Shown piece by piece: positions 30,384 through 49,175 of a DNA stretch of 64,000 nucleotides (position 1 is the stretch's first letter; each line of letters opens with the position of its first letter). The translations under genes and the position numbers were made by a program. The notes beneath the pieces were generated by a model. The model saw only the letters and a list, made by a program, of their open reading frames with translations, did no database searches and was not told the DNA's origin. Location: the NCBI GenBank assembly GCA_965248695.1, contig CBDFKD010000002.1:2272001-2336000 (forward strand). Reading direction: 5' to 3'. Source of the DNA: Acidobacteriota bacterium (lineage in GTDB: Bacteria > Acidobacteriota > UBA890 > WLXD01).

Positions 30384-30405
30384 AGGTCACGTGCTTGCCA
30401 CACTC

Positions 30406-30532
30406 CGGTGAACACCGAACCACGCGCGGTGAACACTGAATCCCCCTTGCTGGTGAGACGGGGTACCGCGTCGGTGAGCGCTGCAGCGACCGTCCGGTGA
30501 ACATCGAACACGAACCTCGGTGAACACCGAAC
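30406..30532. repeat. Four 15-bp direct repeats CGGTGAACAYYGAAY
   Basis: Copies at 30406, 30427, 30495, 30518. Confidence 0.8.
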
Positions 30533-30590
30533 CGGCCAGGGTGCCGGAATGTGGAGTGCTCCGCCCCCCGTACGACAGCAACGACAGGCT

Positions 30591-30850
30591 CTACTGGAAC
30601 ACCCACGGGCCCAGCGGCACGTCGTTCTTGCAGCTGTCGTCGATCTTCGCGTACGGATCATCCCGGAACCCTGATACGAGCTTCGGTCGGCAGTCTCCGG
30701 GTAACCCGTGTCGCTGACCCTGAAGCTCGATGATCTGCAGGTTGGGCATCGTTCGCGCCACGTGGTGACCCCAGCGGGGGCTGCAGCACACGTCGACCTG
30801 ACCATGCAGCGATAGCCCCGGAACGTCCGAGTGGAAACGGTCGTTGTGCT
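30591..30850 (-). pseudogene. C-terminal fragment of an alpha/beta hydrolase (TAP-like)
   Basis: SDVPGLSLHGQVD..HHVARTMPNLQIIELQGQRHG; cut by IS256. Confidence 0.5.
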
Positions 30851-32215
30851 CGGATCCGGCCCGAGTCCTGTGGAAATAAAGATGGCGTAACCTCCGAGTA
30901 GGAAAAACACAAAGCCGCCACGAGCGGCAGGAGGCTACGCCGTGAAGCAGGTTAGCACGGAGGGAACCGGGCTCGTCGAGTTCCGGCAGGACGTACAGGC
31001 GCTGTTGCGCACCAGGATCCGCGAGGCGATCCAGATGACGCTTGACGAGGAGCTCACCGAGGCGCTGGGTTGCGACCGATACGAGCGCAACGGGCAGCGG
31101 CGAGGCTACCGCAACGGCAGCCAAAGGCGTCGGGTGACGACAGCCCAAGGGCTCCAGGAGCTGGACATACCGCGGGGGCGCATCGTGGGGCAAGACGGCA
31201 GCACCCGAGAGTTCCGCAGCGCGATCCTGCCACGGTACGCACGGCGAGCCCGGCAGGTGGACGAGGCGATCCTGGGAGCATACCTGGCGGGAGCCAACAC
31301 CCGGCGGATCCGCAAGGCGCTCTCTCCGCTGCTGGGCAAGGCGCACCTGACCAAGAGCACGATCTCCAGGGTGGTGGGGCGCCTGAAGGCGTACTTCGAG
31401 CGCTGGAGACAGCGAGATGTGTCAGGCGAGCGGTACTGGATCCTGTATTTGGACGGGTTCCATCTGAAGGTCAGGCTGGCGAGGCGGGTCGTGTCGGCGC
31501 CGGTACTGGCGGTGCTCGGGGTCCAGCCCGACGGCCAGAAGGTGTTGGTAGCGTTGCAGTTGGCGGTCTCGGAGGCAGCGGTGCACTGGCAAGGACTGAT
31601 CGAGTCGCTGGTGAGACGAGGGCTGCAGGCGCCGGAGGTGCTGATCGCCGACGGCCACAAGGGCCTGGCCAAGGCGATCGAGGTATGGCCCGATGTGTCG
31701 GTGCAGCGGTGCACACAACACAAGTGGAGCAACTTACGCGACCACTGCCCGGTTCATGCACGTGCGGAGATGAAGCGGGACTGGGATGCGATCGTCCGGG
31801 CCGATGACGGCAACCAGGCCAGAGCCGCCTACGCCGCCTTCGTACGCAAGTGGTCGACCCTCGTGCCCGCCGTGGCCCGGAGCCTGCAGGAGGCCGGCTT
31901 GAACCTGCTGACTTTCTACCAGTTCCCGAAGCCGATGTGGAAGACGCTGCGCACCACCAACGCCCTCGAGAACCTGAACCGGGAGTTCCGTCGTCGTACC
32001 AAGACGCAGGGCTCGTTCTCGACCGAGGCCGCTGGGGTGACGTTGCTGTGGAGCCTGGTCGCCTTCGGCCAGATCCGCATGCGACGCATCGATGGCCACC
32101 GGTTCTTGGCTCAGCTCACGTGCGGCCCCGACAAACAGGCCGCCTAACCGATAGGATCATCCGTCGTCGCGGAGGAGACGCTCATCCAATTTCCACGACA
32201 TTCGGGGCACATCCC
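30851..32215 (+). mobile_element. IS256 family element (transposase 30942-32147)
   Basis: GYRNG, LYLDG, LIADG, QRCTQHK, RTTNALENLNREFRRR; imperfect IRs ending GTGGAAAT; no target duplication. Confidence 0.92.
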
Positions 32216-33798: not shown

Positions 33799-34056
33799 TC
33801 AGTGGAGAACAGGATTAGCACATGGAATCTGACGTTGGCACCGTGATAAAGTACCGTCAACGTCCAGCGCGCGCGCCAAAGCCCGCAGCGGCAGGATGCG
33901 CAGCATCCAGCGCTCCGGGTCGTTTTCGAGATCCTCCACCACCTGCAGTGGCGTGCATCCGAACTCCTCACATAGCCGACTGATGAACCACGCCTCGGGC
34001 ACCGGCTCATCACCAATACCCTCGAAGTGGCGATACAGCCGGACTAGGCTTCCCCC
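33799..34056 (-). CDS. Tail assembly chaperone second ORF (gpT-like, -1 frame)
   Basis: FISRLCEEFGCTPLQV; overlaps the chaperone stop at GGGGGAA. Confidence 0.6.
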   Translation of the reverse strand, partial: GGSLVRLYRHFEGIGDEPVPEAWFISRLCEEFGCTPLQVVEDLENDPERWMLRILPLRALARALDVDGTLSRCQRQIPCANPVLH

Positions 34057-34451
34057 TCCTGAGCCTCTGACGGAGGCATGGTCAGATCGATGATTTCCTG
34101 AGCGGCCCACTGTGTGGTGCGCTCATCCAGCGCCGCCTTGTTCTCGGAGTCGCAGGAGGCATCGTAGGACCAGGCCGCCAAGCCCATGTCGATCAGATAG
34201 CCCGTGTCGTAGTTGGCCGCCTGATAGCGCCGCTCTTGGAGCACCTTGCGAATCTCCCCCTCGGCTCTGTCGCCACCCTTCGAAAGCACCTCGAGGAATT
34301 CCGCTCCCCAAGCCTTAGCGGACTCGCGGGAATAATCCTCCTGCAGGCTGCGCGCTTTGCGCAGCTGCTTCCACGAGAGCCGGTTGAGTAGAAAGTGCTG
34401 CCCCGGCTCGTGTGGAATCTCCCGCTGTACGGGCTCTCCTGTCACCAACAT
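34044..34451 (-). CDS. Tail assembly chaperone (gpG-like)
   Basis: Position after the tail tube; AAAGGAG RBS; GLAAWSY motif. Confidence 0.7.
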   Translation of the reverse strand: MLVTGEPVQREIPHEPGQHFLLNRLSWKQLRKARSLQEDYSRESAKAWGAEFLEVLSKGGDRAEGEIRKVLQERRYQAANYDTGYLIDMGLAAWSYDASCDSENKAALDERTTQWAAQEIIDLTMPPSEAQEGEA

Positions 34452-34480
34452 CTACGTTTCTCCTTTGTCTTTGGCTGCTC

Positions 34481-34903
34481 TTACGCCCAGGTCCACGCGC
34501 CGGTCGGCTGCAGCACCACGACCGCCTTGTGGATGTCCTCGGCACTCATCACCACCTGGAAGCTCACCACCCGCACATCGCCCGTGAGGGTCTTACCGTC
34601 ACCGGCAGTAATGACAACCTCGCGGCCGTCATCCTGGGGACCATCATCGACATCCTTGAAGATGTCGTGCGGGCCGTTCGTGCTCGTGTCCCAGATCAGA
34701 TTGAAGGTGAGCTGGTTCACCATCCTCATGCCCGTGGGCGTGTGCTCTCCCCAGGCATCCCCGTAGGTGGTGGTCTCCACAAACGCCGCCTCGATCTGTG
34801 GATCGACCCCTTCGAGCAAGTAGTTGGAGATGTCGCGGGCCGTCCCACCGGGAGCATCCTCGATGGTCACCGATACCGATGAGGAGCCGTACTTTCCAGG
34901 CAT
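34481..34903 (-). CDS. Tail tube protein
   Basis: VETTTYGDAW..TG, C-terminal LQPTGAWT; position in the operon. Confidence 0.75.
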   Translation of the reverse strand: MPGKYGSSSVSVTIEDAPGGTARDISNYLLEGVDPQIEAAFVETTTYGDAWGEHTPTGMRMVNQLTFNLIWDTSTNGPHDIFKDVDDGPQDDGREVVITAGDGKTLTGDVRVVSFQVVMSAEDIHKAVVVLQPTGAWTWA

Positions 34904-34945
34904 CGTTGTCTTTCTCCCGCCCGCATTGCGGGCCGTTGTTGTCGA

Positions 34946-35683
34946 TTACAAACGAGACATTGCGATCAGTGAGGTGATCGAGCCGGTACCCGTCAGCGCG
35001 CCACTCACGGCGATGTAGCGATCCACCGTGCCGGTTGCACCGAGGCGTTCGGCGAACGGAGCCGAGACGTTGTTGGTGAACGTAATGAGATCTGCGAACA
35101 CTGTGTTATCGGCCGAGTCGCGGATCTTGACCGACAAGCCCGTGATGCCCGCAGCGGCGTTCACGACGAGGTACCCCACAGCGCCGTTGGCCGAACTGGC
35201 ACCGTTGTCCAGCGTCTGGCTCTCGGTATTCCAGTCGGCCGTTTTGGATTCCAGCGGCTGCAAAAGCACACACTCGTCGCGCTGCCCGGTCACCAGGCAT
35301 GTGGCGTTGGCTCGGTGTAGATCGCCTTGCGACATCATTACCTGGTAACTCTGCTGATACAGACCCGACAGACCCACGCACGCATCCCCCACGCCCTTGG
35401 AGGGGCCGTACACGAGCAGGCGCGGTACCGCCTGCACCGAGCTCGGCACCGAGCCCCCTAGCGCCGCGTGGCTGTTGTTGGCTCCGGTATCAAAGAACGC
35501 TCCCTCAATGCTCAGCTCCACTTGGCGCACACCGATGGGCGTGTGCTTTTCCCACCCGTCTCCAAGCCCATCGGTGCGCACGGTGGGAACGGTGACCGTT
35601 TCGGATAGCTGCTGTGGACTGGCGGCCGTCAGGTCATAGCCATCCACCGTAAGGAACACATCGGCGGGACCGTAGCGTGTCAT
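34946..35683 (-). CDS. Tail-tube-like protein with an extra C-terminal beta domain
   Basis: N-terminal half resembles the adjacent tube gene. Confidence 0.6.
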   Translation of the reverse strand: MTRYGPADVFLTVDGYDLTAASPQQLSETVTVPTVRTDGLGDGWEKHTPIGVRQVELSIEGAFFDTGANNSHAALGGSVPSSVQAVPRLLVYGPSKGVGDACVGLSGLYQQSYQVMMSQGDLHRANATCLVTGQRDECVLLQPLESKTADWNTESQTLDNGASSANGAVGYLVVNAAAGITGLSVKIRDSADNTVFADLITFTNNVSAPFAERLGATGTVDRYIAVSGALTGTGSITSLIAMSRL

Positions 35684-35686
35684 TAC

Positions 35687-35950
35687 TTACCTCCCCGTCG
35701 AGACCTTCGCCGTGGAGCGCGGCGTGACGATCTCGACGTTGCCGGACTGGATCTGAACCTGTTGCAGCTTCTTGGGCATATCGGAGCAGTCGCCCCCAGC
35801 CTCGACGCTCCTAAACTCGATCCCGGCGCGGTCCTTGGCGCTCATGCGCGATAGCCCACCCGCCTTAGCGATCGCCTGCACGGCCTTCGGATCGATGGGA
35901 TACGTGATGGCGCCGCGACGGTTCGTCACGCGGAGCTTTTGGGTAGCCAT
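35687..35950 (-). CDS. Hypothetical phage protein
   Basis: AGGAG RBS; tightly packed in the operon. Confidence 0.65.
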   Translation of the reverse strand: MATQKLRVTNRRGAITYPIDPKAVQAIAKAGGLSRMSAKDRAGIEFRSVEAGGDCSDMPKKLQQVQIQSGNVEIVTPRSTAKVSTGR

Positions 35951-35954
35951 GAGA

Positions 35955-36140
35955 TCAATCGCTCCTGTAGTTGTTGCCGCACTTCAAACACCAGCTCGTG
36001 CCCCCGAACGCCTTCTGTTGCCTGTCCTCGGAAGCCCCGCATTGCGGGCACGATCCATCATCTAAATGAGTGGGGATCGCGTTGCCGCGAGCATCCACGA
36101 GTCCGCCTTTGTCAACATCGACTGGCCCTGTATCCGTCAT
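35955..36140 (-). CDS. Small zinc-ribbon phage protein
   Basis: CPQC...CLKC; ATGA overlap with the upstream gene. Confidence 0.65.
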   Translation of the reverse strand: MTDTGPVDVDKGGLVDARGNAIPTHLDDGSCPQCGASEDRQQKAFGGTSWCLKCGNNYRSD

Positions 36141-36529
36141 CGCTCTTTCTCGGTGCGGCAGTTAAAGACGATCAAAACGCGCTCTTTGTCGTCGCGCTTG
36201 TACAGTCCCGGGTCTTGTAGAGGGCTGATCCAGTGGTACTGCGTGCCAGACAGCTCGGTGCCCTGAACCTTCACCAGCGCGTCACGGATACTCGTGGCGG
36301 TGGCCAGCGGCGTGTCGTGGTCGTACGGCGCACCGCGCACCACGACTTGCAGCCGCGGCCGCTCGTAGGCCACCCCGCCGGTGACTCCGAACCCCCGCGA
36401 CGGCGCCTCCCCGGGGTACTGGTACAGCGCCACCGCCGTATCCGGCGTCGCCGGCATCGTTCCCCTATAGATCGGATCCGTGATGCTCTCGGTGACCAAG
36501 TAGCTCTTCACCTCCTGCAGAAAGGCCAT
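36137..36529 (-). CDS. Tail terminator (minor capsid family)
   Basis: MPATPDTAVALYQYPG, ERPRLQVVVRG, RVLIVFN. Confidence 0.8.
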   Translation of the reverse strand: MAFLQEVKSYLVTESITDPIYRGTMPATPDTAVALYQYPGEAPSRGFGVTGGVAYERPRLQVVVRGAPYDHDTPLATATSIRDALVKVQGTELSGTQYHWISPLQDPGLYKRDDKERVLIVFNCRTEKER

Positions 36530-36909
36530 CAGCGCTCCAACAACCCCTTGCCGATCCGCGCCGCCATCCCTGGAATCGCCTCGGTCACGGAGTTCTCCAG
36601 AAACTTCGCCTCGCCCACCGTGTGGCGCGCCTCTAGGTCCTCGTGTACGCGGTGTGCGTAGCTCACCGCCGGCCCCCCAACACCGATCCGCACCGATACA
36701 TCCCGACCCGACCGCCTGGGCGCCTCCACGTGGTGGCTGGCACGTAGTGCGCCGGTATCCACCGGGGTTCGCCGACGGCTCTTGGTGGCGATCTTTTGAG
36801 CCTCCCGGTGCAACGCCGCCTCGATCTTGCTCGGCATGCGAGCCGTTACGGCCCCCAGCTTGCGCCTCAGCTCAGACAACCCCTCGATCCGTACGCTCAT
36901 CCCAGCCAC
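36529..36909 (-). CDS. HK97 gp10 family neck protein
   Basis: IEGLSEL..TPVDTGALRAS..YAHRVHE..AKFLE. Confidence 0.85.
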   Translation of the reverse strand: MAGMSVRIEGLSELRRKLGAVTARMPSKIEAALHREAQKIATKSRRRTPVDTGALRASHHVEAPRRSGRDVSVRIGVGGPAVSYAHRVHEDLEARHTVGEAKFLENSVTEAIPGMAARIGKGLLER

Positions 36910-37253
36910 ACCTCGAGCATGTAGGGTGTCCCGGTGGAGCCATTCACCAGCCCCTCGATATCGAGAATCGGCCCCGTGGTGTTGTCCGGCAGCGTGATCC
37001 GATCCAGCGGCCCCACCTGCACCGGGAACAGAAAGCTCACCTTGGCCCGCGCCATCACCACGTTGCCCTCGTCGCCGCGCACCTGTCGCTGCTTGTGCTC
37101 CACGAGCGCTGGCCGCTGTACCGCTGAGCCATACGTCGGTGCCCCCTGGTCATTGGGGCCTTCATACGCTTCGTGGACCACGTCGTGCTGCAGGTCGCTC
37201 GTGAGGCTGTTGGCCAGCGCCACACCGGAGGCCACAAGAGTCTCCAAACCCAT
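36897..37253 (-). CDS. Head closure protein
   Basis: Position in the operon; DRITLPD motif. Confidence 0.65.
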   Translation of the reverse strand: MGLETLVASGVALANSLTSDLQHDVVHEAYEGPNDQGAPTYGSAVQRPALVEHKQRQVRGDEGNVVMARAKVSFLFPVQVGPLDRITLPDNTTGPILDIEGLVNGSTGTPYMLEVWLG

Positions 37254-37257
37254 ATCG

Positions 37258-37797
37258 CTACGCCCTCACCAGTTGGCGCGTGCCGGAGGCACGGCCCCGC
37301 ACCGCGTAGTACCAGTGCTCCGGGATCAGCAGCACCACCAGGTCCGGCACCGCCTTGGCAAACACGGAGTCTTTGAACTCCAACTCCACCGGCCCTGCCT
37401 TGATCCTGGTGATGCCTTTGGTCTCGATATCGGAATCATCCGTGCGGCCGAGATCGGCCAGCAGTTGCCGGGCGTATTCCGCCTGCGCGTTCTTAATCTG
37501 CACCGGGATCTCGGTGGAGGCGACGTGCTCAAACCCGGTCGGCTTGAGCATCCCCGTGCGGGGCCATTGCAGCGCCTGGTTCCGATCCACCGCGTGCCCG
37601 CTCCACTCAAAGGCTCGGTCCAGCAGCAGCGTCGCCATCAACAGCGCCTTGGTCTTGGCACCCTCCTCGGTGCTCGTGGCTGTCCACGCCGTACCGGACG
37701 CGACCCGGTCCTCGTGGTACTGCTCGGCCTCCCCCAGCGTGGCGTAGGTGTTGCTCCAAGCCCCGCCGACGGTCGCATTCAGTACCGAGGTCGCCAT
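37258..37797 (-). CDS. Head-tail adaptor (DnaT-like annotation family)
   Basis: NTYATLGEAEQY, QALQWPR, IPVQIKNAQAE. Confidence 0.8.
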   Translation of the reverse strand: MATSVLNATVGGAWSNTYATLGEAEQYHEDRVASGTAWTATSTEEGAKTKALLMATLLLDRAFEWSGHAVDRNQALQWPRTGMLKPTGFEHVASTEIPVQIKNAQAEYARQLLADLGRTDDSDIETKGITRIKAGPVELEFKDSVFAKAVPDLVVLLIPEHWYYAVRGRASGTRQLVRA

Positions 37798-37970
37798 CAG
37801 TTCCCCTTGCGCCTTTTCGTAGGCTGCGCCTTGGACTTCGGCTTGCCACCGCCTCTAGCCTTCGGCTTGGCTATCTCCTCGTAGTCGTGTTCGTTGAACT
37901 CTTCTCGATTGATCACGCACTCCGCCCCATCGCTTTTGCGACGGACTTTCTGAGTCGGTATTGCAGCCAT
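37797..37970 (-). CDS. Small basic phage protein (57 aa)
   Basis: MAAIPTQKVRR..CVINREEFNE; TGATG coupling to the adaptor gene. Confidence 0.6.
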   Translation of the reverse strand: MAAIPTQKVRRKSDGAECVINREEFNEHDYEEIAKPKARGGGKPKSKAQPTKRRKGN

Positions 37971-38052
37971 CGCTTTGTCACCTAGGGGGTGTGGGCTCGG
38001 TCGCGAGCACGCAGCCAGCGCGACCGAGCCTCATCATTGTGGACCCAGCCGA

Positions 38053-39168
38053 TTAGCCTGCGACGCGCACCGCCAGCTCCGGGCGAACCGTCTGCACACC
38101 GTAGAGGGAGTCGTAGGAGAAACGAGTCCTCTTGTGCTGACGCGACACTTCCAGTCGCAGCGCCAAGCCCGATACCGGGTCGACCGCCGCGCGGAACGTC
38201 CCGACTCCCATCGGGTCGGCTCCCTGGAACGGCCGCATGGCCAACGCGAAGGCGTCACGGTGAAACGCCAGGTTCACCGTGTGGCTGCCCTTGAACGTCA
38301 GCGCCGCATCGTCGGCCCAGGCAACCTTCGACGCCGGTGCGTAGGTGATGACGTTGCTCCCGTAGGCCTCCACGACGTAGGTCTGCGTGTCACCGGCCAC
38401 CGTGAAGATGTCGCCCTCGGCGGGATCGCCCGAGCCGGTATCGATCGTCACGGTTCCGTTGCCCACCACATGGTCCGACTGGTTCACCAGCCAGCCTGAG
38501 CCGCCGCCCGTGGTATGCGTTGGAACGTTCTGGTCCATCGCCCACATGGAGCCGAGCTTCTCGCCGATCTCACCACGCAAGATACCCTGACGGTCACCCC
38601 GGTAACTGGCGTCCTGGAAGGCGCGCAGGTTCAGCGCGTTCGCCTCTGCATCCGGATCGATCACGCAAAAGCGTGGATCCAGTGGCGCGAGCTGTTCGTT
38701 GAGCACCTTGCGGGCGTTCACGAACGCCGACAGGTCGCTCGTGAACGGCGTGGTGCCCGCCGTGCCGGCGTACCCGTAGATGTCCTTGTACTTGGCAAGG
38801 ATGGCGTTGTCGATGTTGTTCGCCAGCGCCTTGATCGCCTCGGAGGCTTGCATCGGGATCGTTCCCGACTGCACCTCCAGCATTTCCTTGTCGTTGAGGA
38901 AAAACGGCGCCTCGTACCACTGATCCAGTACGAGCGACACCTTCGTCGGCGCGATCCCGGCATCGTCGGGCGGCGTGTTGGAAGGCGTTACCGCGGTTGC
39001 GGCGATCGCCGAGGGGATCGGTACATCGATCGTCGAGTACTGATCGCCCGGAACGTTTTCGTAGGCGCGGTTGACGAACCGCGGCATGACCACCATCTCG
39101 CGCAGAGCCAACAGACCCTGTGCCAACAGACGGTCAACGATATGCGTGGTGGTGTTGGTATTGGCCAC
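38053..39168 (-). CDS. Major capsid protein, P22 coat family
   Basis: GGAGGAG RBS + GTG; ALANNID, MDQNV, NLAFHRDAFALAMRP, DSLYGVQTVRPELA. Confidence 0.9.
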   Translation of the reverse strand: MANTNTTTHIVDRLLAQGLLALREMVVMPRFVNRAYENVPGDQYSTIDVPIPSAIAATAVTPSNTPPDDAGIAPTKVSLVLDQWYEAPFFLNDKEMLEVQSGTIPMQASEAIKALANNIDNAILAKYKDIYGYAGTAGTTPFTSDLSAFVNARKVLNEQLAPLDPRFCVIDPDAEANALNLRAFQDASYRGDRQGILRGEIGEKLGSMWAMDQNVPTHTTGGGSGWLVNQSDHVVGNGTVTIDTGSGDPAEGDIFTVAGDTQTYVVEAYGSNVITYAPASKVAWADDAALTFKGSHTVNLAFHRDAFALAMRPFQGADPMGVGTFRAAVDPVSGLALRLEVSRQHKRTRFSYDSLYGVQTVRPELAVRVAG

Positions 39169-39200
39169 TGTCGGGGCACTCCTCCACAAAAGAAGTTGCG

Positions 39201-39487
39201 GATTCGTCCCCACCGGGGCGCGGCCCCCTGGATCTGAAGAGACCCTGTTAGCCGCCGTGACCTAATGGCGTGCCACGTCACGCTCTCAGAATATGTCTTA
39301 GTACTACCGAATTCGTCCCCACCGGGGCACGGCCCTTGGATCCTTCAAGATCCACCAGCCGCCGCGGCTTCGTACCGCACCGCGTCACGCTCGGTTACTT
39401 CCGATTCGTCCCCACCGGGGCGCGGCCCCCTGGATCTGAAGAGACCCTGTTAGCCGCCGTAGCCTAATGGCGTGCTACGTCACGCTC
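39201..39487 (-). ncRNA. Three tandem copies of a putative structured cis-RNA element
   Basis: Units 39403-39487, 39310-39392, 39201-39285 with compensatory stem changes. Confidence 0.7.
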
Positions 39488-39501
39488 GGTACTGCTGTCC
39501 T

Positions 39502-40263
39502 CTACTGTACTACGGCCTTGCCGGCCGCAATGTCCTCCAAGCTCCCCCCGAACTGATCTTCCGAAACCATACGTGCCATACCCGTTGTGGAACCGCTCGT
39601 ATCGCTCGGGCGTGCTCCACCTCCGGTGGATTCCTTGAACAGATGCGCCGCTTGTCGCTGTAGCCTCTCGCCCCACTCTTGCATCGTGAGCGGCAGCGCC
39701 GGGTTGATTTCGGAAAACAACGGCTCCTCGCCACGCTTGGCAACGACCTTGCCGTCCTCTTCGGTCAGCTGGAAGACCGCTGTTCCACGAGACAAAAAGT
39801 CTTCCCACGCCTCGTCACGTACTCCGAGCTTGGATCCCACGGTTCGCAGCTGCGACTCAAGATCCTTCCGTGCCGCTTGCTGCCGTGCCGCCACCTCGCG
39901 CGCATTGGACTCATCGAGCTTTTTTGCCAATGACTCTAGCTGCGCCTGGATCGCTTGCATCTCCGCGTCCTTCTTGGGCGCCGTCTTCTTCAACGTCTCA
40001 AGCTCCGTGACGGCGCTCGTGTACTTGTCCTCAAGACCGGAGATCTCATCGAGCCTCGTGGTCAAATCACCGATCTTGCTGTTCAGACCAACGTTGCTAT
40101 CCCGGAAATGCGCCGTGGCCTTCTTCTGCTCCTCCAGCTCCGAGGCCACCACCATCCCCGGCACATCGCCTTCGAGCTTCAGTACGTACTTACCGTCACG
40201 CTCCACGTACTCGTCGCGAAGTGCTTCGGCAACGGCACCCAGATCTTCAACGACGACTTGCAT
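39502..40263 (-). CDS. Capsid scaffolding protein
   Basis: YVERDGKYVLKLEG, coiled coil, AAHLFKESTGGGA, LEDIAAGKAVV. Confidence 0.85.
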   Translation of the reverse strand: MQVVVEDLGAVAEALRDEYVERDGKYVLKLEGDVPGMVVASELEEQKKATAHFRDSNVGLNSKIGDLTTRLDEISGLEDKYTSAVTELETLKKTAPKKDAEMQAIQAQLESLAKKLDESNAREVAARQQAARKDLESQLRTVGSKLGVRDEAWEDFLSRGTAVFQLTEEDGKVVAKRGEEPLFSEINPALPLTMQEWGERLQRQAAHLFKESTGGGARPSDTSGSTTGMARMVSEDQFGGSLEDIAAGKAVVQ

Positions 40264-40410
40264 GCTCCCACCCTGTCAGCGCGACCGACCGTGGCCCCCC
40301 GGCTACGGTCCGTTGCGTCTGAATCCGTCTCCTTGAATCAATACGACGATCCTGGTCGCGGTGTCAAGCACCTACCGTCGATCCGATTAACCACGCGTGC
40401 TCAGGTACGA

Positions 40411-40478
40411 GAAGGTAAACTTTCGCTTACCTTATTGACTGAAGTAAGGAACTACTGTATATTGTAAGGAAAGCCTTG
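40411..40478 (+). promoter_or_regulatory. Sigma70 promoter and operator palindromes of the TA operon
   Basis: TTGACT(40435)-17 bp-TATATT(40458); AAGGTAA..TTACCTT and AAGG-AAAG-CCTT inverted repeats. Confidence 0.7.
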
Positions 40479-40488
40479 AGGTGCTGCC

Positions 40489-40722
40489 ATGATCGAATCT
40501 TCTATCAGCAAGAAAGGACAGACAACACTCCCCAAGCCCGTACGGGAGATGCTCGGCGTCCAGGCTGGGGACCGGGTACGCTACGTCATTGCCGACGGCG
40601 AGGTGCGAATTCTGCCCGTGCGCTCCATCAATCGGTTGTTCGGCGTGCTACAGCATGATGGCCCCGCCCTTGCGGTAGAGGAAATGGAGCAGGCCATAGC
40701 CGACAGCGCGGCTGAGGGATGA
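40489..40722 (+). CDS. vapB: AbrB/MazE-type antitoxin
   Basis: ISKKGQTTLPKPVREMLGVQAGDRV. Confidence 0.88.
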   Translation: MIESSISKKGQTTLPKPVREMLGVQAGDRVRYVIADGEVRILPVRSINRLFGVLQHDGPALAVEEMEQAIADSAAEG

Positions 40723-41111
40723 TCGCGCTCGATACCAACGTTCTCGTCCGCTATCTGGTGCGCGACGATGTGCAACAGGCGGAGGCTGCTCGGACGTTAC
40801 TGGAGTCGCTCACGATAGATTGTCCCGGCTACGTCTGCCGCGAAGTAATCGTCGAGCTTGTCTGGGTATTGGAACGTGCCTACAGGTTCCCCCGTAAACG
40901 AATAGCGACGATATTGGAACAACTCGTGGCGACCGATGGTCTCGTAGTCGAAGAGGCAGACGATGTAGCCCGTGCAGCGTTTCGATACCAGGCGCATGGC
41001 TCTGGATTTTCTGATCTGATGATTCTGGCAGCGGCCGAACGATCTCAGGCCCATCCGCTATATACCTTCGATAAGAAGGCTACACGGCTTGAAGGTGTGA
41101 CGCTGCTATAG
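40719..41111 (+). CDS. vapC: PIN-domain toxin
   Basis: IALDTNVLVRYL, ELVWVL, FSDLMI, LYTFD; ATGA overlap. Confidence 0.9.
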   Translation: MIALDTNVLVRYLVRDDVQQAEAARTLLESLTIDCPGYVCREVIVELVWVLERAYRFPRKRIATILEQLVATDGLVVEEADDVARAAFRYQAHGSGFSDLMILAAAERSQAHPLYTFDKKATRLEGVTLL

Positions 41112-41144
41112 GGGAGACTGCGTGCTACACGCGATTAACGTGCT

Positions 41145-41726
41145 CTAGCGGCCGTCTGTAGCGATCCCCACCGCACACCGGCACCGAGGATGCGCCGGTG
41201 GCCCCGGAATCAGAAACGGCTTGCCAACCTCCGCCACGGCGTCACGCATCGGCTCACAAATCGGGCAGAGCCGATCATCCGGCGTGACGATCCATACTTT
41301 CTTCTGCCCCTTGGGCAACAGCCCCGCCCGCTGCGCCTGACGCCAGGATTCTTCCTGCCCCGCATTGAGCGCGTTCATCACCTCGGTGCGGGCGATTGTC
41401 TTGGCCCGCTCCCGAAGCTTCTTCTGCACGTAGCGGTCCACCTTGCGGTCGACAAACTGCAGCGTCAGCCCCTGGTCGATCAGCTCGGCGCGGTAATTCA
41501 GCGCCGCTTGGACCTGTTGCGCGTTCAGTCCGATCATCGGTTGGATCGCGCGTGCCGCCTCGAACGGAGGCTGCCCCTCGCGGATGGCGCGCACGATGGC
41601 TGCACGAATACCCCGACGGGTCTCCTCTGAGACTCCCTTGACGAGCCGTGCCGCATGGCGGGCAGCGGCGCGCTGTGCTGCCGGGAGCGTGGCGTCGAAC
41701 CGGAAGGAAGTGCTGGTCGTGGCCAT
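41145..41726 (-). CDS. Phage minor head protein (MuF), C-terminal part
   Basis: RAKTIARTE, DDRLCPIC, PPAHPRCRC. Confidence 0.85.
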   Translation of the reverse strand: MATTSTSFRFDATLPAAQRAAARHAARLVKGVSEETRRGIRAAIVRAIREGQPPFEAARAIQPMIGLNAQQVQAALNYRAELIDQGLTLQFVDRKVDRYVQKKLRERAKTIARTEVMNALNAGQEESWRQAQRAGLLPKGQKKVWIVTPDDRLCPICEPMRDAVAEVGKPFLIPGPPAHPRCRCAVGIATDGR

Positions 41727-42054
41727 CGCTTACCGGCTCGTTAGGCGTTGGACGCGTAGCACCGCGCAGCGTGGAATCGTCATGTCGCCGCACCCCTGGC
41801 GGGCAACTCCCTCAGTCTGGTCCGTCAGGTGGGGCACAACCACGAGACACTGATCGTCTTCGTGTACCAATCACCCTACAGACCGGTACACGAGAGCCGC
41901 AGGCTCGATCATATCCAATGGCTGCCAACTGGCAGAACAGCCGTACGAGTCGTGCCACTCCACCAGAACAGGCGCCATCAAGCTCTCGGCACCAGCCTCG
42001 TCGTACAGACCCTCCCGCAAGCGCTCCATGGCCCGTACGAACGCCCGCTCCATC

Positions 42055-42333
42055 CTAGAGCTCATTGATTCGCTTCGCCCCGAGTCTTCCACCGCGCATG
42101 AACGCCTCCTGCACGCTGTCTCCCACTCCCTCCAACGCCTCCCGAACCTCACCCACCGGCACCCGCCGCAGCGCCCCCTTCGCATCGCCGGCCGACAGCG
42201 CTAGCGCTAGCTCGTTGATCGACACCTGATCCCGCAAGCGCTCCATGGCCCGTACGAACGCCCGCTCCAGGCGCGGCTCGATCCTGTCGGCGGCCGCATG
42301 AAGCTCCCGATACGCAGGCTCTCTACGTGGCAT
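42055..42333 (-). CDS. Probable MuF N-terminal part
   Basis: AADRIEPRLERAFVRAMERLR; position after the portal. Confidence 0.55.
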   Translation of the reverse strand: MPRREPAYRELHAAADRIEPRLERAFVRAMERLRDQVSINELALALSAGDAKGALRRVPVGEVREALEGVGDSVQEAFMRGGRLGAKRINEL

Positions 42334-42625
42334 CGGGAAATAACCCCCCCTTGACCATCTCGGATGCAATGGCGTTGCATACCAACTCTTCGAGTTCTTG
42401 ATGCTCTTCGAGAACCGAGCTCAGCCCCCGCACGAATAACACCGCATGCACCCACTCATGCAGCAGCACATAGTGCTTCCATTCACCGTCCGGCAAGTCC
42501 TCTGCTAGCCGAATGTGCGGCGTCGGCTGGCTAATAAACTCGCCGTGAGCCTCCTCGGTTATATGGATACGAGGCACCTCCTCAACGGCTACCGATATCC
42601 CGTCAACTCTTAGAACCCTGCTCAC
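42323..42625 (-). CDS. Small HExxH metallopeptidase-like protein
   Basis: VLLHEWVHA..EELVCNAIA; coupled to the portal stop. Confidence 0.7.
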   Translation of the reverse strand: MSRVLRVDGISVAVEEVPRIHITEEAHGEFISQPTPHIRLAEDLPDGEWKHYVLLHEWVHAVLFVRGLSSVLEEHQELEELVCNAIASEMVKGGLFPDAT

Positions 42626-44037
42626 GCCACCTCTCCCACGAGCGCCGGTCCCTGACGCCCGATCTCCGCTTGTTCCTCCTCCGCACTCACCCCCGGCCGC
42701 GCCAGCTCGCCCTTCTGCATCGCCGCCCAGAAGGTCTCAAACGACACCGCGTCCGCCTGCAACGCCAACACCAAGGAGCGCAACATGTCGGCCCTCATCG
42801 GCACCGCCACGAAGTCCTTGTTCAGCTCGTAGGCAACCTCCACGTCGCTTGGCTTGGCTTCCGTACCCATCCACCAGGCGTGATACCGCCACGCCTGACC
42901 CAGGGCACTCTCGATCGCCTGCGCCACCGTTCGCAGCGTGGCGTGGGCCCCAGCGTGACGCATCCCTACCGCCGTGGCGGTCTCCGCCGCTCGCGGCTGC
43001 TCTTCCAACAACCGCGCACCCAGCGTCGCCATCATGAGGCGCTTTTCCTCCGATGCCTTGTCCAACGCCCCTAACCCCTGGCCGGTGAACTCCAGCATCC
43101 CCGCCTTACCGGTGGGCTCCAGCATCCACGCTGTGCCCGAGCCGATCTCCAACCGCCCTGACTCCTCGTCCTTGATCCCGGCTACCCACGGGGTAGGCAG
43201 TGCCGTGAAGTGTCGCCCGTGCTCTAGGTCCGCCATCGTCCGGTAGTGCGACAGGTTCACATCCACCAGGTCCAGCAGGGGGGGCTTGTCCACCCGAGCC
43301 GACGTGGAGTTTGGAGACACGAACACGAAGGGAATGAACGGCAGCGCCTCGCCGCGCCGTATCGCCACCACTTCCGGCTCCTGCTGCCCCGGCGGTGTCC
43401 ATGGTTCGTACTTGGAGGAGGATTTCGAGGCTTTCCGATACACCGTTTGCGTATATGCCCCGTCTCGTAGCCGCAGCACCCGGTACTGATCGATTTGCCG
43501 CGTGACGAACTCGTCTCGCTCATCGGGCTCCCGCGCTACCTCTCTGAGCACCACCCGTGTAGTGATCTCATCGCCACCCAGACGCTGCGTGCGCCACGAC
43601 ACGATGTCCTCGGCCCGATACCCACACCAGTAGGGTCGCTTACCCGCTACCTGTTCGGAGCCCATCTCCACCAGGATTCCGTAGCGACCCGTCAGCAGCA
43701 CCTCGCGGGTAGCTTGGAGTGCGAACGTCTCGGCCGACTCGCCCCCTAGCGTCACGTCCCTATCGTGATCCTGGATGCTTGCGGGCAGCAGAAGCGTTGG
43801 CTCTTTCTGAAAGATCAGTCCCGCCAAACCATCCACCGTGCGTCCGGTGGCGTTGTAAAACAGCGCTCGTTGCTTGTAAGCCTCGTACTTGGCTGGCTCG
43901 CGTCCGTGGCTCGCTAGCGGGGGCAGGTATCCAGCCCCCTGCTCCTTGACTGCGTCAGAGCCTTCGTAGCAATGACGCACCCGCTGCCACTTGGTGACGA
44001 ACGCCTCATACGTATCGGAAGCGGTATCTACTGGCAT
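42622..44037 (-). CDS. Portal protein (DUF4055)
   Basis: YKQRALFYNATGRT, KPPLLDLVDVNLSHYR, HFTALPTP, LGARLL. Confidence 0.9.
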   Translation of the reverse strand: MPVDTASDTYEAFVTKWQRVRHCYEGSDAVKEQGAGYLPPLASHGREPAKYEAYKQRALFYNATGRTVDGLAGLIFQKEPTLLLPASIQDHDRDVTLGGESAETFALQATREVLLTGRYGILVEMGSEQVAGKRPYWCGYRAEDIVSWRTQRLGGDEITTRVVLREVAREPDERDEFVTRQIDQYRVLRLRDGAYTQTVYRKASKSSSKYEPWTPPGQQEPEVVAIRRGEALPFIPFVFVSPNSTSARVDKPPLLDLVDVNLSHYRTMADLEHGRHFTALPTPWVAGIKDEESGRLEIGSGTAWMLEPTGKAGMLEFTGQGLGALDKASEEKRLMMATLGARLLEEQPRAAETATAVGMRHAGAHATLRTVAQAIESALGQAWRYHAWWMGTEAKPSDVEVAYELNKDFVAVPMRADMLRSLVLALQADAVSFETFWAAMQKGELARPGVSAEEEQAEIGRQGPALVGEVA

Positions 44038-44443
44038 CGTCCCACCCCTTTTTCAGCTCTCGCGCATACCGGGGGCCTTTCCCCCCCCCCCCGGACCTAG
44101 CGGACGAGATCTACTGATATATGTTCCTCTAACTACTACTTGCACACCCGACAACTCCCCCTGGTCCTTAGTGGGGGAGGTGGCTTTTGCGGACGCCCCC
44201 GTATGGCTGGCTTCGGGTCGAAGACAACAATCCGCCCCCGGTCCCTACTGCGACAGTCGTGGCCCTGCACGGTCCCACCCGCACGTTGGCTCCACGCTGC
44301 CCTTCGGAAGGTATGCAAGGGTCGTTGGAGTGCTTGTATGAAATCGCTCCGGGGAGCCGCCCCGGTTCGGGGTGGCGTGCGCACCAACGAAACGACCGAA
44401 TGCAGATCGGTTCGCTGCTGCGCGCGCGTCTCCTCACGTCTCC

Positions 44444-45676
44444 TCACCCCCACGCCACCTGTCGCTGCCTCACCGCGACTCTCCGCACCCGCTCCACCGC
44501 GTAGCGCAGCGCGTCGATGACGTGGTTGTGGGTGTCCTGTAGCACCGGGATCACTTGTCCCGTGCGCCGATCCGTCTTGTAGCTGTACAACGTCAACTCC
44601 TGGATCATGTGGTGGCAGCGGGGATGCACGACGATGTCGTAGCTGCGCAGAAACTCGATACCTTCTTCCACGCTTCCCGGCCCCTTGCGCGCTTTGGCGA
44701 TGCGCGGGTACCCGTGTCGCTGCAGATACGCGATCGTCTCCGGACGAGCGGAATCGGCGATGATCGGCCAGGCGCGTGCCTGGCCGTTGTCGATGGAGTC
44801 GAATAGCTCCGCCGTGCGGTCGATCTCGCAGCCCACTTGGTACGCCTCCCGATCCACGTACAACTTCCGCCCATCGATCCAGCAGCGCACCAGCACCGTC
44901 GGGTCGACTGAGAAACCCCAGTCGGCTCCGAAGTACAACGCTGTGCCTTCGGGCGGATCGGCGAACTGCTCGACGCTCCAGTTGTCGAACACTCGCGCTT
45001 CTGACCGGCCCACGTACTCCCCCAGCCAGACGTGGGCGTACTTGTCCGGGTCGCGCGCCCGGTCCCACTGCATCTCCTGGGCCAACACGTCTGGGAACCA
45101 GGGGTTGTCCGCGTAGTTGGCCTCCACCACCACCGCGCCGGGCGGTGCATTGGTGCCGCGGAGCAGCGCATCCACCGGGTCGGTGGGACTGTTGGGGTTC
45201 CACGAAAACCACAGCTCCGAGCCGGTGGCGCGCACCGTCGGGCGCAACAGCTCTAGCGACTTGGCTGATAGCGACTGCGCCTCCTCCACCCACGCGATCC
45301 CATACCCCTCCAGCGACTTGATCGACTCGGCCGTATGGTTCTGCATCCCGTGAAAGATGATCCGGCCGTTGGCGCCGGTCTCGATATGCGTGTTGAGGAT
45401 GCGGAAGTGCTCTGACACCCCGAGCCTTCCGATGGTGTCCTCTAGCAGCCGCTTCACGGACTGATCCAGCGACCGTTGCACCTCGCGCACGCACAGGGCT
45501 CGGGTGTTGGGATCCTCTAGGCATCGTTGCACCAGCAGCGAGGCGAAAAACCATGACTTGCCTGATCCTCGCCCACCGTACGCACCCCGGTACCGTGCGC
45601 GCTCCTTGAGCAGCGGCACGAACGCGCGCGGGGCTTGGAGCTGAAGCGTGCCCTCATGCTGCCCGTCATGCCGCAT
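44444..45676 (-). CDS. Terminase large subunit, PBSX family
   Basis: YGGRGSGKS, AWVEEA, SWNP, GADWGF, ADSARP, HVIDALRYA. Confidence 0.95.
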   Translation of the reverse strand: MRHDGQHEGTLQLQAPRAFVPLLKERARYRGAYGGRGSGKSWFFASLLVQRCLEDPNTRALCVREVQRSLDQSVKRLLEDTIGRLGVSEHFRILNTHIETGANGRIIFHGMQNHTAESIKSLEGYGIAWVEEAQSLSAKSLELLRPTVRATGSELWFSWNPNSPTDPVDALLRGTNAPPGAVVVEANYADNPWFPDVLAQEMQWDRARDPDKYAHVWLGEYVGRSEARVFDNWSVEQFADPPEGTALYFGADWGFSVDPTVLVRCWIDGRKLYVDREAYQVGCEIDRTAELFDSIDNGQARAWPIIADSARPETIAYLQRHGYPRIAKARKGPGSVEEGIEFLRSYDIVVHPRCHHMIQELTLYSYKTDRRTGQVIPVLQDTHNHVIDALRYAVERVRRVAVRQRQVAWG

Positions 45677-46115
45677 CGTCCTGAGCCTCGAGCTCCGCAT
45701 CGGCATCCTCGGCCTTAGGATCCACGATGACCCATTCGATGCGGTTGATGATCGGGCCGCCGTGAGGTCCGCCGTGCTCGTGCTTGTGCTTCCCGGACAG
45801 GCTGTTGCGATCCAGGATGTCGCGGGCGGCAACCAGAGCAAGAGCCTTCGCCTCGTCATCCTGAACGATCTTGGATAGACGCTCGATCGCGGGATCCACG
45901 AGGGCGGCAAGTCGCTCCTGTGCCTTGGCCCTGACCTGCGGCGCGGCTCCACCGTGAAAACGACAAACCGTGCCGCCAGCGATCGCCAGGTTTCGACATC
46001 GCTTGCCGCTTCTAGCTGTCGCATGACAGCGGTTTGCAACGCTCAAGTGATTTCTTCCATGGGGTCTCGTTGCTCCATGGGGTCCGTCATGAGACTCATC
46101 GGTTGGCGTGCTCAT
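45666..46115 (-). CDS. Terminase small subunit-like protein (HGGxSTG-type N-terminus)
   Basis: CHATARSGKRC..VCRFHGG; 11-bp overlap with TerL. Confidence 0.7.
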   Translation of the reverse strand: MSTPTDESHDGPHGATRPHGRNHLSVANRCHATARSGKRCRNLAIAGGTVCRFHGGAAPQVRAKAQERLAALVDPAIERLSKIVQDDEAKALALVAARDILDRNSLSGKHKHEHGGPHGGPIINRIEWVIVDPKAEDADAELEAQDDAA

Positions 46116-46435
46116 GCGATGCGCTCCAGGAGCCCTCGATGACGCAGTTGTTCGGTGAGCGCCACCGGGTCAGCACCGATGTACTGACACCACCAGCCCA
46201 GCGAGCAGGGGCGCAACTCCTCCGGGTGCGACAACCACGCAACCAGGTCTGATTCGGGGCCGATCTCCCGTAGCCTCTTGCACGTGCAAGCGGGCCGCTC
46301 GGTTCGATCACGCCACGTTGCCACCATGCCCAGGTCGACAATCGCCCGACGGATCACCGCAGCGGCAAGTGCGCGCTCCGGGGCGATGTCCACGCCTTCA
46401 ACGTCGGGGATCGCGGGGGACTCGAAGCTGATCAT
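46112..46435 (-). CDS. Hypothetical phage protein
   Basis: PERALAAAVIRRAIVDL; ATGA couplings at both ends. Confidence 0.65.
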   Translation of the reverse strand: MISFESPAIPDVEGVDIAPERALAAAVIRRAIVDLGMVATWRDRTERPACTCKRLREIGPESDLVAWLSHPEELRPCSLGWWCQYIGADPVALTEQLRHRGLLERIA

Positions 46436-47475
46436 GCCGCTAGCTCCAGGAGCATCGGGTCCTCGCGGTTCAGCAGCGGCGCGTCATCTCCGATCCTGCG
46501 GCGAGCCATCTGTACGTACTCGGGATTGAGCTCGATGCCCACGAAACGGCGGTCGGCGCGGAGCGCAACGACGCCCGTGGTACCGGAGCCGCAGAAGGGG
46601 TCGAGCACGACACCGCCTTCGGGGCAGCCGGCCAGCACACACGGCTCCACGAGCTTGGTCGGGAAGGTGGCGAAGTGCGCTTCGGGAAACGCAGCTTTGC
46701 CGCCATTCGAGATGGTCCAGACCGAGCGCAGGTTCGCACCTTGCTTGACTTTGCCGCCGCGGTGACAGGGGCGCTGCGGCCTAGCAGTCGGATTGGCCCC
46801 GTGATAGTTCGGCGAATTTGCCCACCCAGAGATGTTGGATTTTCGCCACCTGCCATCAACCAAATCGCTCCGCGTCTCCGGGCGATATAGCGTTCGAACC
46901 GCGTCAGCGTCGTAGTAGTACCGAGCGGACTTCGACAGCAGGAAGACGTACTCGTGGGCCTTTGTGGGCCGATCGGTGACCGACTCGGGCATCGGGTTCG
47001 GCTTTGCCCAGAGGATGTCCGAGCGCAGCCACCAGCCATCCGCTTGCAGCGCGAAGGCGATGCGCCAGGGCATGCCGATCAAGTCCTTCGGCTTGAGCCC
47101 CGGTGTGCGCTCCATGCTTCCAGTGAGGTTCCTGATCTGCGCTGCCTTCACTTGGTTCGCGCTCAGAGCGGAGACATTCGGCGCGTGCTTGCCAGCGTGC
47201 TCTCGTGATTGGGCACCACACGAGCCCGCATAGCAGTCCCCCATGTTGAGCCACAGCGTGCCGTCGCTCCGCAGCACTCGGCGGACCTCTCGGAACATCG
47301 CCACCATCTTGGCGACGTACTCGTCGAGTGTTGCTTCGAGCCCGACCTGGCCGTCAGTCCCGTAGTCACGGAGCCCCCAGTAGGGCGGCGAGGTCACGAC
47401 GCAGTGGACCGACTCGTCCGGTAGCTGGGCGAGGCCCTCCAGCACGTCGGCACAGATCAGCCGGAAGTGCCTCAT
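46432..47475 (-). CDS. Phage DNA methyltransferase (N4/N6 family)
   Basis: VTSPPYWGLRDY, WAKPNPMPESV, HFATFP, LDPFCGSGTTG. Confidence 0.92.
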   Translation of the reverse strand: MRHFRLICADVLEGLAQLPDESVHCVVTSPPYWGLRDYGTDGQVGLEATLDEYVAKMVAMFREVRRVLRSDGTLWLNMGDCYAGSCGAQSREHAGKHAPNVSALSANQVKAAQIRNLTGSMERTPGLKPKDLIGMPWRIAFALQADGWWLRSDILWAKPNPMPESVTDRPTKAHEYVFLLSKSARYYYDADAVRTLYRPETRSDLVDGRWRKSNISGWANSPNYHGANPTARPQRPCHRGGKVKQGANLRSVWTISNGGKAAFPEAHFATFPTKLVEPCVLAGCPEGGVVLDPFCGSGTTGVVALRADRRFVGIELNPEYVQMARRRIGDDAPLLNREDPMLLELAA

Positions 47476-47624
47476 GCGATGCGCTCTAGGGCCAGCAGCT
47501 CGTCGAGACGATCCTCGACCTCTGCCCGTGTGATCTCCGGGTTTCCCTCGTAGCTGGCCGCGTAGTACCCGGCCACGTAGGGCTTGAACCACTCGGCGTG
47601 CTCGAAGATGTACGGGCGCTCCAT
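47472..47624 (-). CDS. Small hypothetical phage protein
   Basis: GGAGG RBS; MERPYIFEHAEWF; coupled to the methylase. Confidence 0.45.
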   Translation of the reverse strand: MERPYIFEHAEWFKPYVAGYYAASYEGNPEITRAEVEDRLDELLALERIA

Positions 47625-47889
47625 CACGACGCTGCTTCCTCCAGGAGCCGCGCTAGCGCCTCCTCTAGCTCCTCGCCGCTCACAAGTTGAGAGGGGTCTT
47701 CTTCGATGGCCGCCAATTGCTCGCGGGCGATCTCGGCATCTCTCCATTCCTTCCTCGTTGCCTCGCTTCACGATGCCCTCCCGAGCCAGAGCCCGAAATC
47801 GGCTGGTACCGATTTGGTACCGTTTTCAACCCTCAAAGGGGGGTCTAGAGGGGTCTAAACCCCCTGTAAGTCGTTGAATCTACGTAGAT

Positions 47890-49175
47890 CGGTGATCTTC
47901 GCGATCACCGCCAGCCTGGCGATGCTGGCGCTCTTGCCGATTCCGTTGATCATCTTCGGCGCCTTCTGGTTCCAGCGCCGACTGGCACCGCGCTACGCCG
48001 CTGCGCGAGACGCTGCCGGAACGCTGTCGGCACGGCTCAACAACAACCTGTACGGCATGGCCACCATCCAGGCGTATACGGCGGAGGATTTCGAAGCCGA
48101 GCACCTGCGCGTCGCGTCGGACGCCTACCGCGCCCGCAACGCCGATGCCATCCGGTTTGCTGCCGCCATCAATCCGGTGATCCGCATGGCGGTGCTGACG
48201 GGCTTCATCGCCACCCTGCTGTACGGCGGCATCCTGGCTCTGCGCGGCGACATCGGCGTGGGCAGCTACTCCGCGCTCGTCTACCTCACCCAGCGACTGC
48301 TCTGGCCCCTCACGCAGATGGCCGAGCTGACCGACCTGTACAACCGCGCCATGGCCTCGGTGACTCGGATCATGGATCTCCTCGACACTCCGGCTCCGAC
48401 TGCGCCCGACACACCGCTACCCCCAGATGTGACCGCGACGCTCGCGTTCGAGGATCTGCACTTTGCGTACGACGGCAAACCGGCGATCCGCGGAATCGAC
48501 TTCCGCGTCGCCTCCGGTGCCACGGTAGCGCTGGTCGGTGCCACCGGCGGCGGCAAGAGCACGGTGCTCAAGCTGCTGATGCGCTTCCTCGACGTCGGCA
48601 GCGGCAGCATCATGCTCGACGGCGAGGACATCAGCCGCTACGACGCTCGCTCGCTGCGCGAGGCGATCGGCTACGTCGCACAAGATCCGTTTCTCACCGA
48701 CGGCACCGTTGCCGAGAACATTGCCTACGGTGAGCCCGATCCGAACATGGCCGCGGTGGAGAACGCCGCCCGCGCCGCCGAGGTCCACGACTTCGTCCAG
48801 ACACTGCCGGATGCGTATCTGAGCCTGGTGGGCGAGCGCGGCGCCCAGCTGTCCGGCGGCCAGCGGCAACGCATCGCTCTGGCACGAGCGCTCTACCGCG
48901 ATCCGGCGATCCTGGTTCTCGATGAGGCGACATCGGCGGTGGACAACAAGACTGAGGCCGCGATCCAGCGCTCCCTGGCCGGCGCTGCTCGCGGCCGTAC
49001 CACGCTGGTGGTCGCCCACCGCCTCTCGACGATCCGCCACGCCGACGCTATCCACGTATTGGACAAGGGACGCATCGTCGAGAGCGGCACACACGATGAG
49101 CTCGTCGCCCGGGACGGGCCGTACGCGGCGCTCTGGCGATTGCAAACAGGCACGGCGGCAGACAAGACGTGCTGA
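47890..49175 (+). pseudogene. ABC transporter permease/ATPase, 5' truncated
   Basis: GATGGGKST, LSGGQRQR, LVLDEATS; first transmembrane helices missing at the prophage junction. Confidence 0.8.

Follow-up and report, generated by a model that had tools for sequence, protein, structure and literature searches.

How tailed phages keep coat production very high and in balance with scaffolding protein, all from one late transcript, is, to our knowledge, largely unknown outside a few model phages. The question is raised by a prophage locus in the window analyzed here (a 64,000-nucleotide stretch of an Acidobacteriota genome), in which three tandem copies of a unit of about 90 nt (39491-39198, minus strand) occupy the gap between a head scaffolding protein gene and a P22-like major capsid gene (Table 1). 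A sequence-only reading of this DNA had described the copies as four-way-junction RNAs that fill the interval from the scaffold stop to the capsid ribosome-binding site, and had proposed a cooperative RNA, either cis-regulatory or for processing, that would set the capsid:scaffold ratio, or else a structural or packaging RNA. What, then, is the unit, which parts of its fold are maintained by selection, and what might it do ahead of a capsid gene? As detailed below, it represents an uncatalogued structured RNA family. In tailed phages of a clade whose scaffold and P22-like coat proteins have separate genes, this RNA makes up the 5′ leader of the major capsid mRNA, and its probable role is to control the amount of capsid protein produced.

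Table 1. Features of the scaffold-capsid region in window coordinates, in order of transcription.
Feature	Position	Strand	Remarks
Head scaffolding protein gene	39502..40263	-	phrog_206, E 3.2e-19; stop TAG 39504-39502
Unit 1	39400..39491	-	P1 with extension, P2, P3, P4; R1 111.8 bits, R3 82.1 bits
Unit 2 (diverged copy)	39306..39396	-	R1 86.5 bits, R3 79.9 bits
Unit 3, adjoining the ribosome-binding site	39198..39288	-	without extended P1; R1 102.1 bits, R3 71.5 bits
P4 hairpin of unit 3, CCCC GGU GGGG	39208..39218	-	read from the sequence
Hairpin P5, CCGCAA CUUCUU UUGUGG	39184..39201	-	predicted; between unit 3 and the ribosome-binding site
Capsid ribosome-binding site GGAGGAG	39179..39185	-	sequence
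Spacer GUGCCCCGAC	39170..39179	-	its CCCC resembles the P4 5′ arm
P22-like major capsid gene	38053..39168	-	phrog_283, E 3.2e-72; tblastn to phage coat proteins

The scaffold and capsid genes belong to a module that also holds portal, head-morphogenesis, connector and major tail protein genes, in a genome of 65% G+C with many insertion sequences, and the capsid start was placed at the GTG at 39168, 10 nt after GGAGGAG. This head module (33868-45690) is duplicated in inverted orientation on contig 2 (5192109-5203302; 98.4-99.5% identity), and the twin, some 2.86 Mb away, has a near-identical three-unit array; the genome contains six unit copies in these two arrays and no others. The window copy of the module has about 630 extra bases (at 40373-41106) that are missing from the twin, a segment with a plus-strand ORF (40719-41111, weak match to phrog_17124) and promoter-like sites. 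An insertion-sequence cluster lies at 28300-32215 and comprises an element of about 1.26 kb (28306-29565) that occurs about 50 times in the genome in near-identical form, an 818-bp partial copy in inverted order (29566-30383) and an element of 1.36 kb (30851-32214; about 10 genome copies). Since the head module abuts this cluster (28.3-32.2 kb), the prophage looks truncated. The window is chromosomal, given its tRNA gene (8230-8302, minus strand) and small SRP RNA gene (11459-11558, minus strand). A DNA methyltransferase gene (46432-47592, phrog_67) lies in a region (46112-47897) that recurs at 99.3% identity on contig 2 (3844763-3846547), with partial copies at further sites.

Each unit runs GAGCGUGA, P2, P3, a single G, the P4 hairpin CCCC GGU GGGG and ACGAAU, and this anatomy is present on the minus strand at 39201-39487 as had been read from the letters. 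The array begins 10 nt past the scaffold stop and stops 12 nt short of GGAGGAG, and it fills the gap as described. The details of the stems were also borne out: CCGA/UCGG lengthens the CGU/ACG closing stem of units 1 and 2 and is missing from unit 3, P2 occurs as CGUAGC/GCUACG, CGCGGU/GCCGCG and CGUGGC/GUCACG, each with a 10-nt loop, and P3 consists of an outer GCGGC/GCCGY helix, an inner helix (GGGUCU/AGAUCC or UGGAUC/GAUCCA) and an apical loop. Units 1 and 3 share 96% identity across 85 nt, and all three of their differences fall in the P2 stem with pairing retained (A-U to G-C, G-C to G-U), while unit 2 is 67-93% identical, depending on the part compared, and differs in the sequence of P2 and inner P3 with the same pairing. 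The repeats are not a product of chance, and as all three copies are intact, with units 1 and 3 differing by compensatory changes only, selection appears to maintain each of them.

No match to the unit was found among known RNA families, in keeping with the failure of the sequence-only reading to recognize one. A search of the whole window with Rfam 15 at gathering score returned only the tRNA and the SRP RNA, both elsewhere, the interval 39100-39600 gave no match even at E<=10, and 14 relatives at E<=1 gave only a chance miRNA match elsewhere. The array has no blastn match in 50,697 phage records. A covariance model built from the three window units (R1) found no unit in 100 related genomes and nothing below E 0.35 in the first 23 IMG/VR capsid loci, and these loci have long scaffold-capsid gaps that hold similar hairpins. 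R1 was too narrow because it had been built from three near-identical units, and iteration to R2 and R3 was needed, R3 being made from 14 sequences that include the three window units. Among 25 metagenome and genome loci, R1 itself matched one metagenome contig (L067; 35.5 bits, E 1.8e-6), in which the unit lies 38 nt upstream of the capsid start.

The broader models reveal a family that is tied to one place in the phage genome. Of the 14 matches that R2 gave in 80 IMG/VR capsid loci, 13 lie close upstream of the capsid match, and R3 gave 32 matches at E<=1 in 100 sources, of which 31 are on the sense strand directly upstream of the capsid gene, the sole exception being locus L054. An association with capsid genes is thus found in 31 of 32 matches, in loci that were collected via capsid homology except for those from pattern scans. 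By tblastn, a capsid homologue lies downstream in 26/26 motif loci and a scaffold homologue upstream in 25/26. The pattern scans were blind to the capsid gene. A strict sequence pattern gave no stretch in the viral contigs, a capsid-blind pattern gave one (L086, 36.4 bits), flanked by a scaffold-like ORF and a capsid ORF, and a second capsid-blind pattern gave 11, three of which (L174, L172 and again L086) are strong by the model and all lie between scaffold and capsid homologues; the other eight score at most 25.5 bits and are within unrelated coding DNA with no scaffold or capsid genes. A 19-mer of a second subtype retrieved five stretches, four of them already known capsid leaders and one (L185) unrelated. 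Units 1-3 themselves have P2, P3 and P4 flanked by CGYG and NCGAA and score 71.5-82.1 bits with R3.

Most relatives carry a single unit rather than three. Tandem cooperativity is consequently not of the essence of the element, and the proposal of a cooperative tandem element is not supported for the family. In two close relatives of locus L111 (L117, 1369-1456, and L121, 1389-1457), the P4 hairpin is kept and is followed by a CCGAA...UUCGG hairpin, whereas P2 and P3 are missing; these loci count as P4 only, as the rest of the model match falls in the end of the scaffold gene, and the element therefore looks modular. The family is also not found in every related phage. Among the 80 IMG/VR loci, 15 have an R3 match at E<=0.03 and 21 at E<=1, which leaves 59 with none at that threshold, and the median scaffold-capsid gap is 127 nt in loci with no match and 121 nt in the others, lengths that are approximate, as some gaps are cut short by spurious long ORFs in the G+C-rich DNA.

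Several further loci were noted in these searches. Cultured Vibrio Mardecavirus phages have no R3 match in the scaffold-capsid gap. In two of these, MAR10 and SSP002 (L167, 1290-1494; L169, 1289-1494; capsid 50-51% identical), the gap is 205 nt long, with a clear terminator, a sigma-70-like promoter and a two-hairpin leader in which each loop reads CGGGG. Another type of capsid leader, with four CCCGGAGGG hairpins in a 176-nt scaffold-capsid gap and no model match, is present at 2825-3010 of loci L044/L045. A capsid protein search of 400 other genomes of the phylum found only one (G039) besides the genome studied here. Its capsid match is split (L083/L085; residues 5-118 and 111-371), which may reflect a frameshift, and a weak leader match (16.4 bits) with a perfect 8-bp P4-spacer match lies just upstream. 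Three sets of candidates were rejected: an R3 match of 30.3 bits among 150 further genomes of the phylum (G098), judged to be chance as no capsid or scaffold gene is nearby; 19 stretches matching an 18-mer of P4 and its flank in genome contigs of unrelated organisms, with R1 scores of at most 24.9 bits and likewise put down to chance; and a weak R1 match in the window itself (24680-24770, plus strand; 24.8 bits) that was not recovered by R2 or R3.

The conserved core of the family consists, in order, of CGYG, P2, P3, one purine, P4 and NCGAA, where P2 is a stem of 5-6 bp with a loop starting RCG, P3 is a long two-part hairpin, and P4 is a G+C stem of 4 bp whose loop has 3 nt and is mostly GGN. 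The loop and 3′ arm of P4 frequently read GGAGG or GGUGG. In an alignment of 14 sequences that was fitted to the model, and is hence biased towards it, 89.1% of cells pair, compared with 70.5% after shuffling and 36-45% in controls with slid partners, and double changes occur at 22 of 29 pairs, a number reached by none of 500 shuffles. In the same fitted alignment P2 is 100% paired with five of its six pairs compensatory, both helices of P3 co-vary, and P4 is nearly invariant with a single C-G to A-U exchange. Because fitted alignments lean towards the model, the covariation test was repeated on a plain MAFFT alignment, from which RNAalifold recovered P2 and P4 with compensatory changes at 8 of 10 pairs; P3 is too diverged to align, and it folds as a single hairpin in 15/15 sequences with a mean z of -3.0. 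The earlier claim of a structured RNA with covariation is accordingly upheld for P2, P3 and P4 with fitted and unfitted alignments together. In addition, G-U cells outnumber A-C cells by 27 to 10 in P2-P4, which points to an RNA of the sense strand.

The closing stem P1 is a different matter, and with it the four-way junction. Across the family P1 amounts to two invariant base pairs, with the third pair unpaired in 9 of 14 sequences; it shows no covariation in the 14 sequences and is not predicted on the unfitted alignment. In minimum free energy folds, units 1 and 2 are predicted to form four-way junctions (-41.0 kcal/mol, z -2.49, and -41.8 kcal/mol, z -1.94, respectively), and a P1 of 7-8 bp is predicted in these two units only, while unit 3 (z -1.21) is predicted to form P2, P3 and P4 with P1 unpredicted. 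For the 347-nt leader as a whole the predicted fold has a z of -2.83, and one of 100 shuffles folds as well. An alternative partner for the 5′ CGY is provided by the first three nucleotides of the P2 loop, which would give 89.7% pairing, compared with 78.6% for P1, through U-G, C-G and U-A pairs, and this pairing fits at least as well as P1. As P1 lacks support family-wide, the element can be described securely as a core of three hairpins between conserved flanks. As predicted by folding, the four-way junction can be regarded as secure for window units 1 and 2 only, and that part of the sequence-only reading does not extend to unit 3 or to the family.

What connects this core to the capsid gene is a second set of complementarities. 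In many members the sequence past the ribosome-binding site repeats the P4 5′ arm, and as a result a strand made up of the P4 loop, the 3′ arm and the adjoining CC is able to base-pair with the spacer and the end of the ribosome-binding site. Complementarity of this P4 segment (loop, 3′ arm and flank) to the region from -17 to +3 of the capsid start reaches z <= -2.3 in 15 of 24 members, for example CGGUGGGG with CCCCACCG, GUGUGGCC with GGCCACAC and CGAAGGGCC with GGCCCUUCG. This complementarity co-varies, in that the mean energy of P4 with its own start region is -12.35 kcal/mol compared with -9.39 kcal/mol for mismatched combinations, whose mean reached the native value in none of 5000 permutations, nor in any of 2000 in a separate run. 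Folding of leader and start region together is predicted to pair 9-17 of 18 nucleotides of the ribosome-binding region in 20/20 members, and when this region is forced open in the calculation P4 is restored, at a predicted cost of 5.1-25.4 kcal/mol (11.1 in the window). Within the window, hairpin P5 is also predicted to cover the first two G of the ribosome-binding site. In the window, the P4-spacer pairing (GGGGAC with GU(G)CCCC) is weak at -9.9 kcal/mol (z -1.1) and not significant alone; nevertheless, it is part of the folds predicted for unit 3 and for the complete leader. It is present in L172 and absent in the relatives that are closest by model score (L111, L067 and L086; z +0.3 to +1.1), so the proposed switch platform is not universal.

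Because the complementarity of P4 to the capsid ribosome-binding region co-varies, a cis-regulatory role, as proposed in the sequence-only reading, fits the family, although the weak pairing in the window tells against it there. On balance we lean, with no great confidence, towards a cis-acting leader that would control capsid translation through two mutually exclusive pairings of the P4 3′ strand and that is tripled at this locus. In the first state, the P4 3′ arm and the following CC would be paired inside the folded element and the ribosome-binding site would be free; in the second, the same strand would be paired to the spacer and the final G's of the ribosome-binding site, and initiation would be blocked. 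Capsid output would then be set by whatever stabilizes the folded core; a small ligand may do so, or a phage protein such as free scaffold or coat, or simply the order in which the RNA folds during transcription. Units 1 and 2, with their long closing stem, should fold stably, and unit 3, which adjoins the ribosome-binding site and is without the long stem, would be the likely switching unit. A more specific version, in which the conserved core is an aptamer for a small molecule or for an assembly-state protein such as free scaffold or coat, and so gates capsid translation, is possible and rather unlikely; if true, the phage would have a sensor that couples capsid synthesis to the state of the cell or of assembly, and tripling might serve a steeper or stronger response.

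Several observations weigh against such a switch. The P4-spacer pairing is weak in the window and missing from the closest relatives, P1, which the switch model uses, has no covariation, and the folding energies are predictions. Moreover, 59 of 80 related capsid loci are without an R3 match despite gaps that are equally long, and the Vibrio Mardecavirus gap has a terminator and a promoter instead. Some of this would be accommodated if the hairpins, notably P3 with its internal loop, served as nuclease entry sites or barriers, in the manner of the T7 RNase III sites and REP-type stabilizers that act as processing or stability elements. The capsid message would be separated from the upstream late genes, or the capsid 5′ end or scaffold 3′ end protected, and capsid output raised without any switch. 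A compact, G+C-rich structure, repeated three times between two genes that are needed in different amounts, is in line with processing, as is the lack of complementarity to the ribosome-binding region in the closest relatives. This explanation is given a low likelihood, since it accounts neither for the conserved unpaired nucleotides (CGYG, the RCG of the P2 loop, CGAA) nor for the co-variation of P4 arm and spacer in 15 of 24 members.

No virion protein is more abundant than the capsid protein, and the element might simply be a constitutive translation enhancer or standby platform that holds ribosomes near a structured ribosome-binding site and gives very high capsid translation with no regulation. 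The predicted structure of the ribosome-binding regions and the frequent GGAGG or GGUGG in P4 loops and 3′ arms are in line with such a platform, and the standby model itself derives from a phage coat cistron, that of MS2 (PMC5934652). The standby sites described there are, however, unstructured tails (PMC5934652), whereas the leader studied here is almost fully paired. Mutually exclusive pairings that co-vary are also more typical of switches, and we regard this explanation as improbable.

Ribozymes cluster in phage regions, and a multi-helix junction with invariant junction nucleotides, in tandem copies and in a phage context, could be taken for a self-cleaving ribozyme in each unit that cuts the late transcript ahead of the capsid gene. 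This is very unlikely, because the helix that closes the junction is not conserved and no Rfam ribozyme family matches (array at E<=10, 14 relatives at E<=1); models of twister-sister, hammerhead, hairpin and other ribozyme families all failed to match the array or the 14 relatives. Least likely of all, and largely refuted, is a selfish or DNA-level repeat with no RNA function (REP/MITE-like, a protein-binding DNA site or a recombination scar), which the tandem copies and the wealth of insertion sequences in the genome might suggest, since the units occupy only two genome loci, both within the same duplicated head module, relatives have one copy in the same place, the stems co-vary and accept G-U pairs on the sense strand alone, and dispersed copies of REP/MITE type were absent from 100 relatives and in no credible form in 150 genomes of the phylum. 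An intrinsic terminator, a G+C-rich hairpin followed by a U run, was also considered and rejected for units 1 and 2, which have no such site. A weak terminator-like site is present at 39198-39213 (minus strand), where the P4 3′ arm of unit 3 can pair with UCCGC, and CUUCUUUU comes next; the site has five pairs, three of them G-C, and the terminator scan gave 5 sites where 2.4 were expected.

With regard to earlier descriptions, no account of the motif was found in the literature, and a prior listing is possible among the 10,006 candidate structured RNAs of viruses and phages that were derived from IMG/VR and are listed in a supplement (PMC10690425). Like those candidates, the element is a conserved structured RNA upstream of a phage gene; five of them are reported upstream of major capsid protein family PHA00201, which is a different capsid family (PMC10690425). 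The SAS/ESAS elements of Cluster K mycobacteriophages offer another comparison, in that they too are conserved at a phage translation start with a suspected role in translation. However, they are conserved in sequence, precede many genes per genome and contain 17-bp inverted repeats, and the capsid-leader element is not one of them, as it is conserved in structure and occurs before the capsid gene only, at one location per phage (PMC3203893).

What emerges is a conserved, capsid-specific leader RNA that has no match in Rfam 15, together with a two-state model that can be tested by mutation of P4, the spacer and P1, and for which nature provides variants with a single copy, with three, or with nothing but P4. 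Should there be an effector, the element would represent a new class of phage gene control and would offer a compact part for tuning expression in engineered phages. An alternative helix that sequesters the ribosome-binding site is the hallmark of translational riboswitches and of protein-dependent leaders such as that of phage Mu mom, which is activated by Com. As in these leaders, the last helix of the capsid element is predicted to share a strand with a helix that covers the ribosome-binding site, the two are exclusive and both co-vary, but here there is no Rfam match, and some members of the family, the window among them, have a weak platform or none. By analogy, the combination of a conserved core and an alternative pairing fits a riboswitch in its architecture alone. 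Tandem riboswitch aptamers are known as well, for example for glycine, and like the window array they place several copies of one structured domain within the same leader; in contrast to them, the three copies here correspond to one in relatives, and tandemness is no trait of the family.

A further parallel, in gene content, is phage P22, in which the scaffolding protein is said to be autoregulated, acting on scaffold synthesis, in work by Wyckoff and Casjens of 1985; we know of no RNA element of the present kind in that regulation. The two systems have in common a scaffold/coat module, a P22-like coat protein and, if the analogy holds, post-transcriptional control. Unlike in P22, however, the element described here lies downstream of the scaffold gene and abuts the start of the capsid gene.
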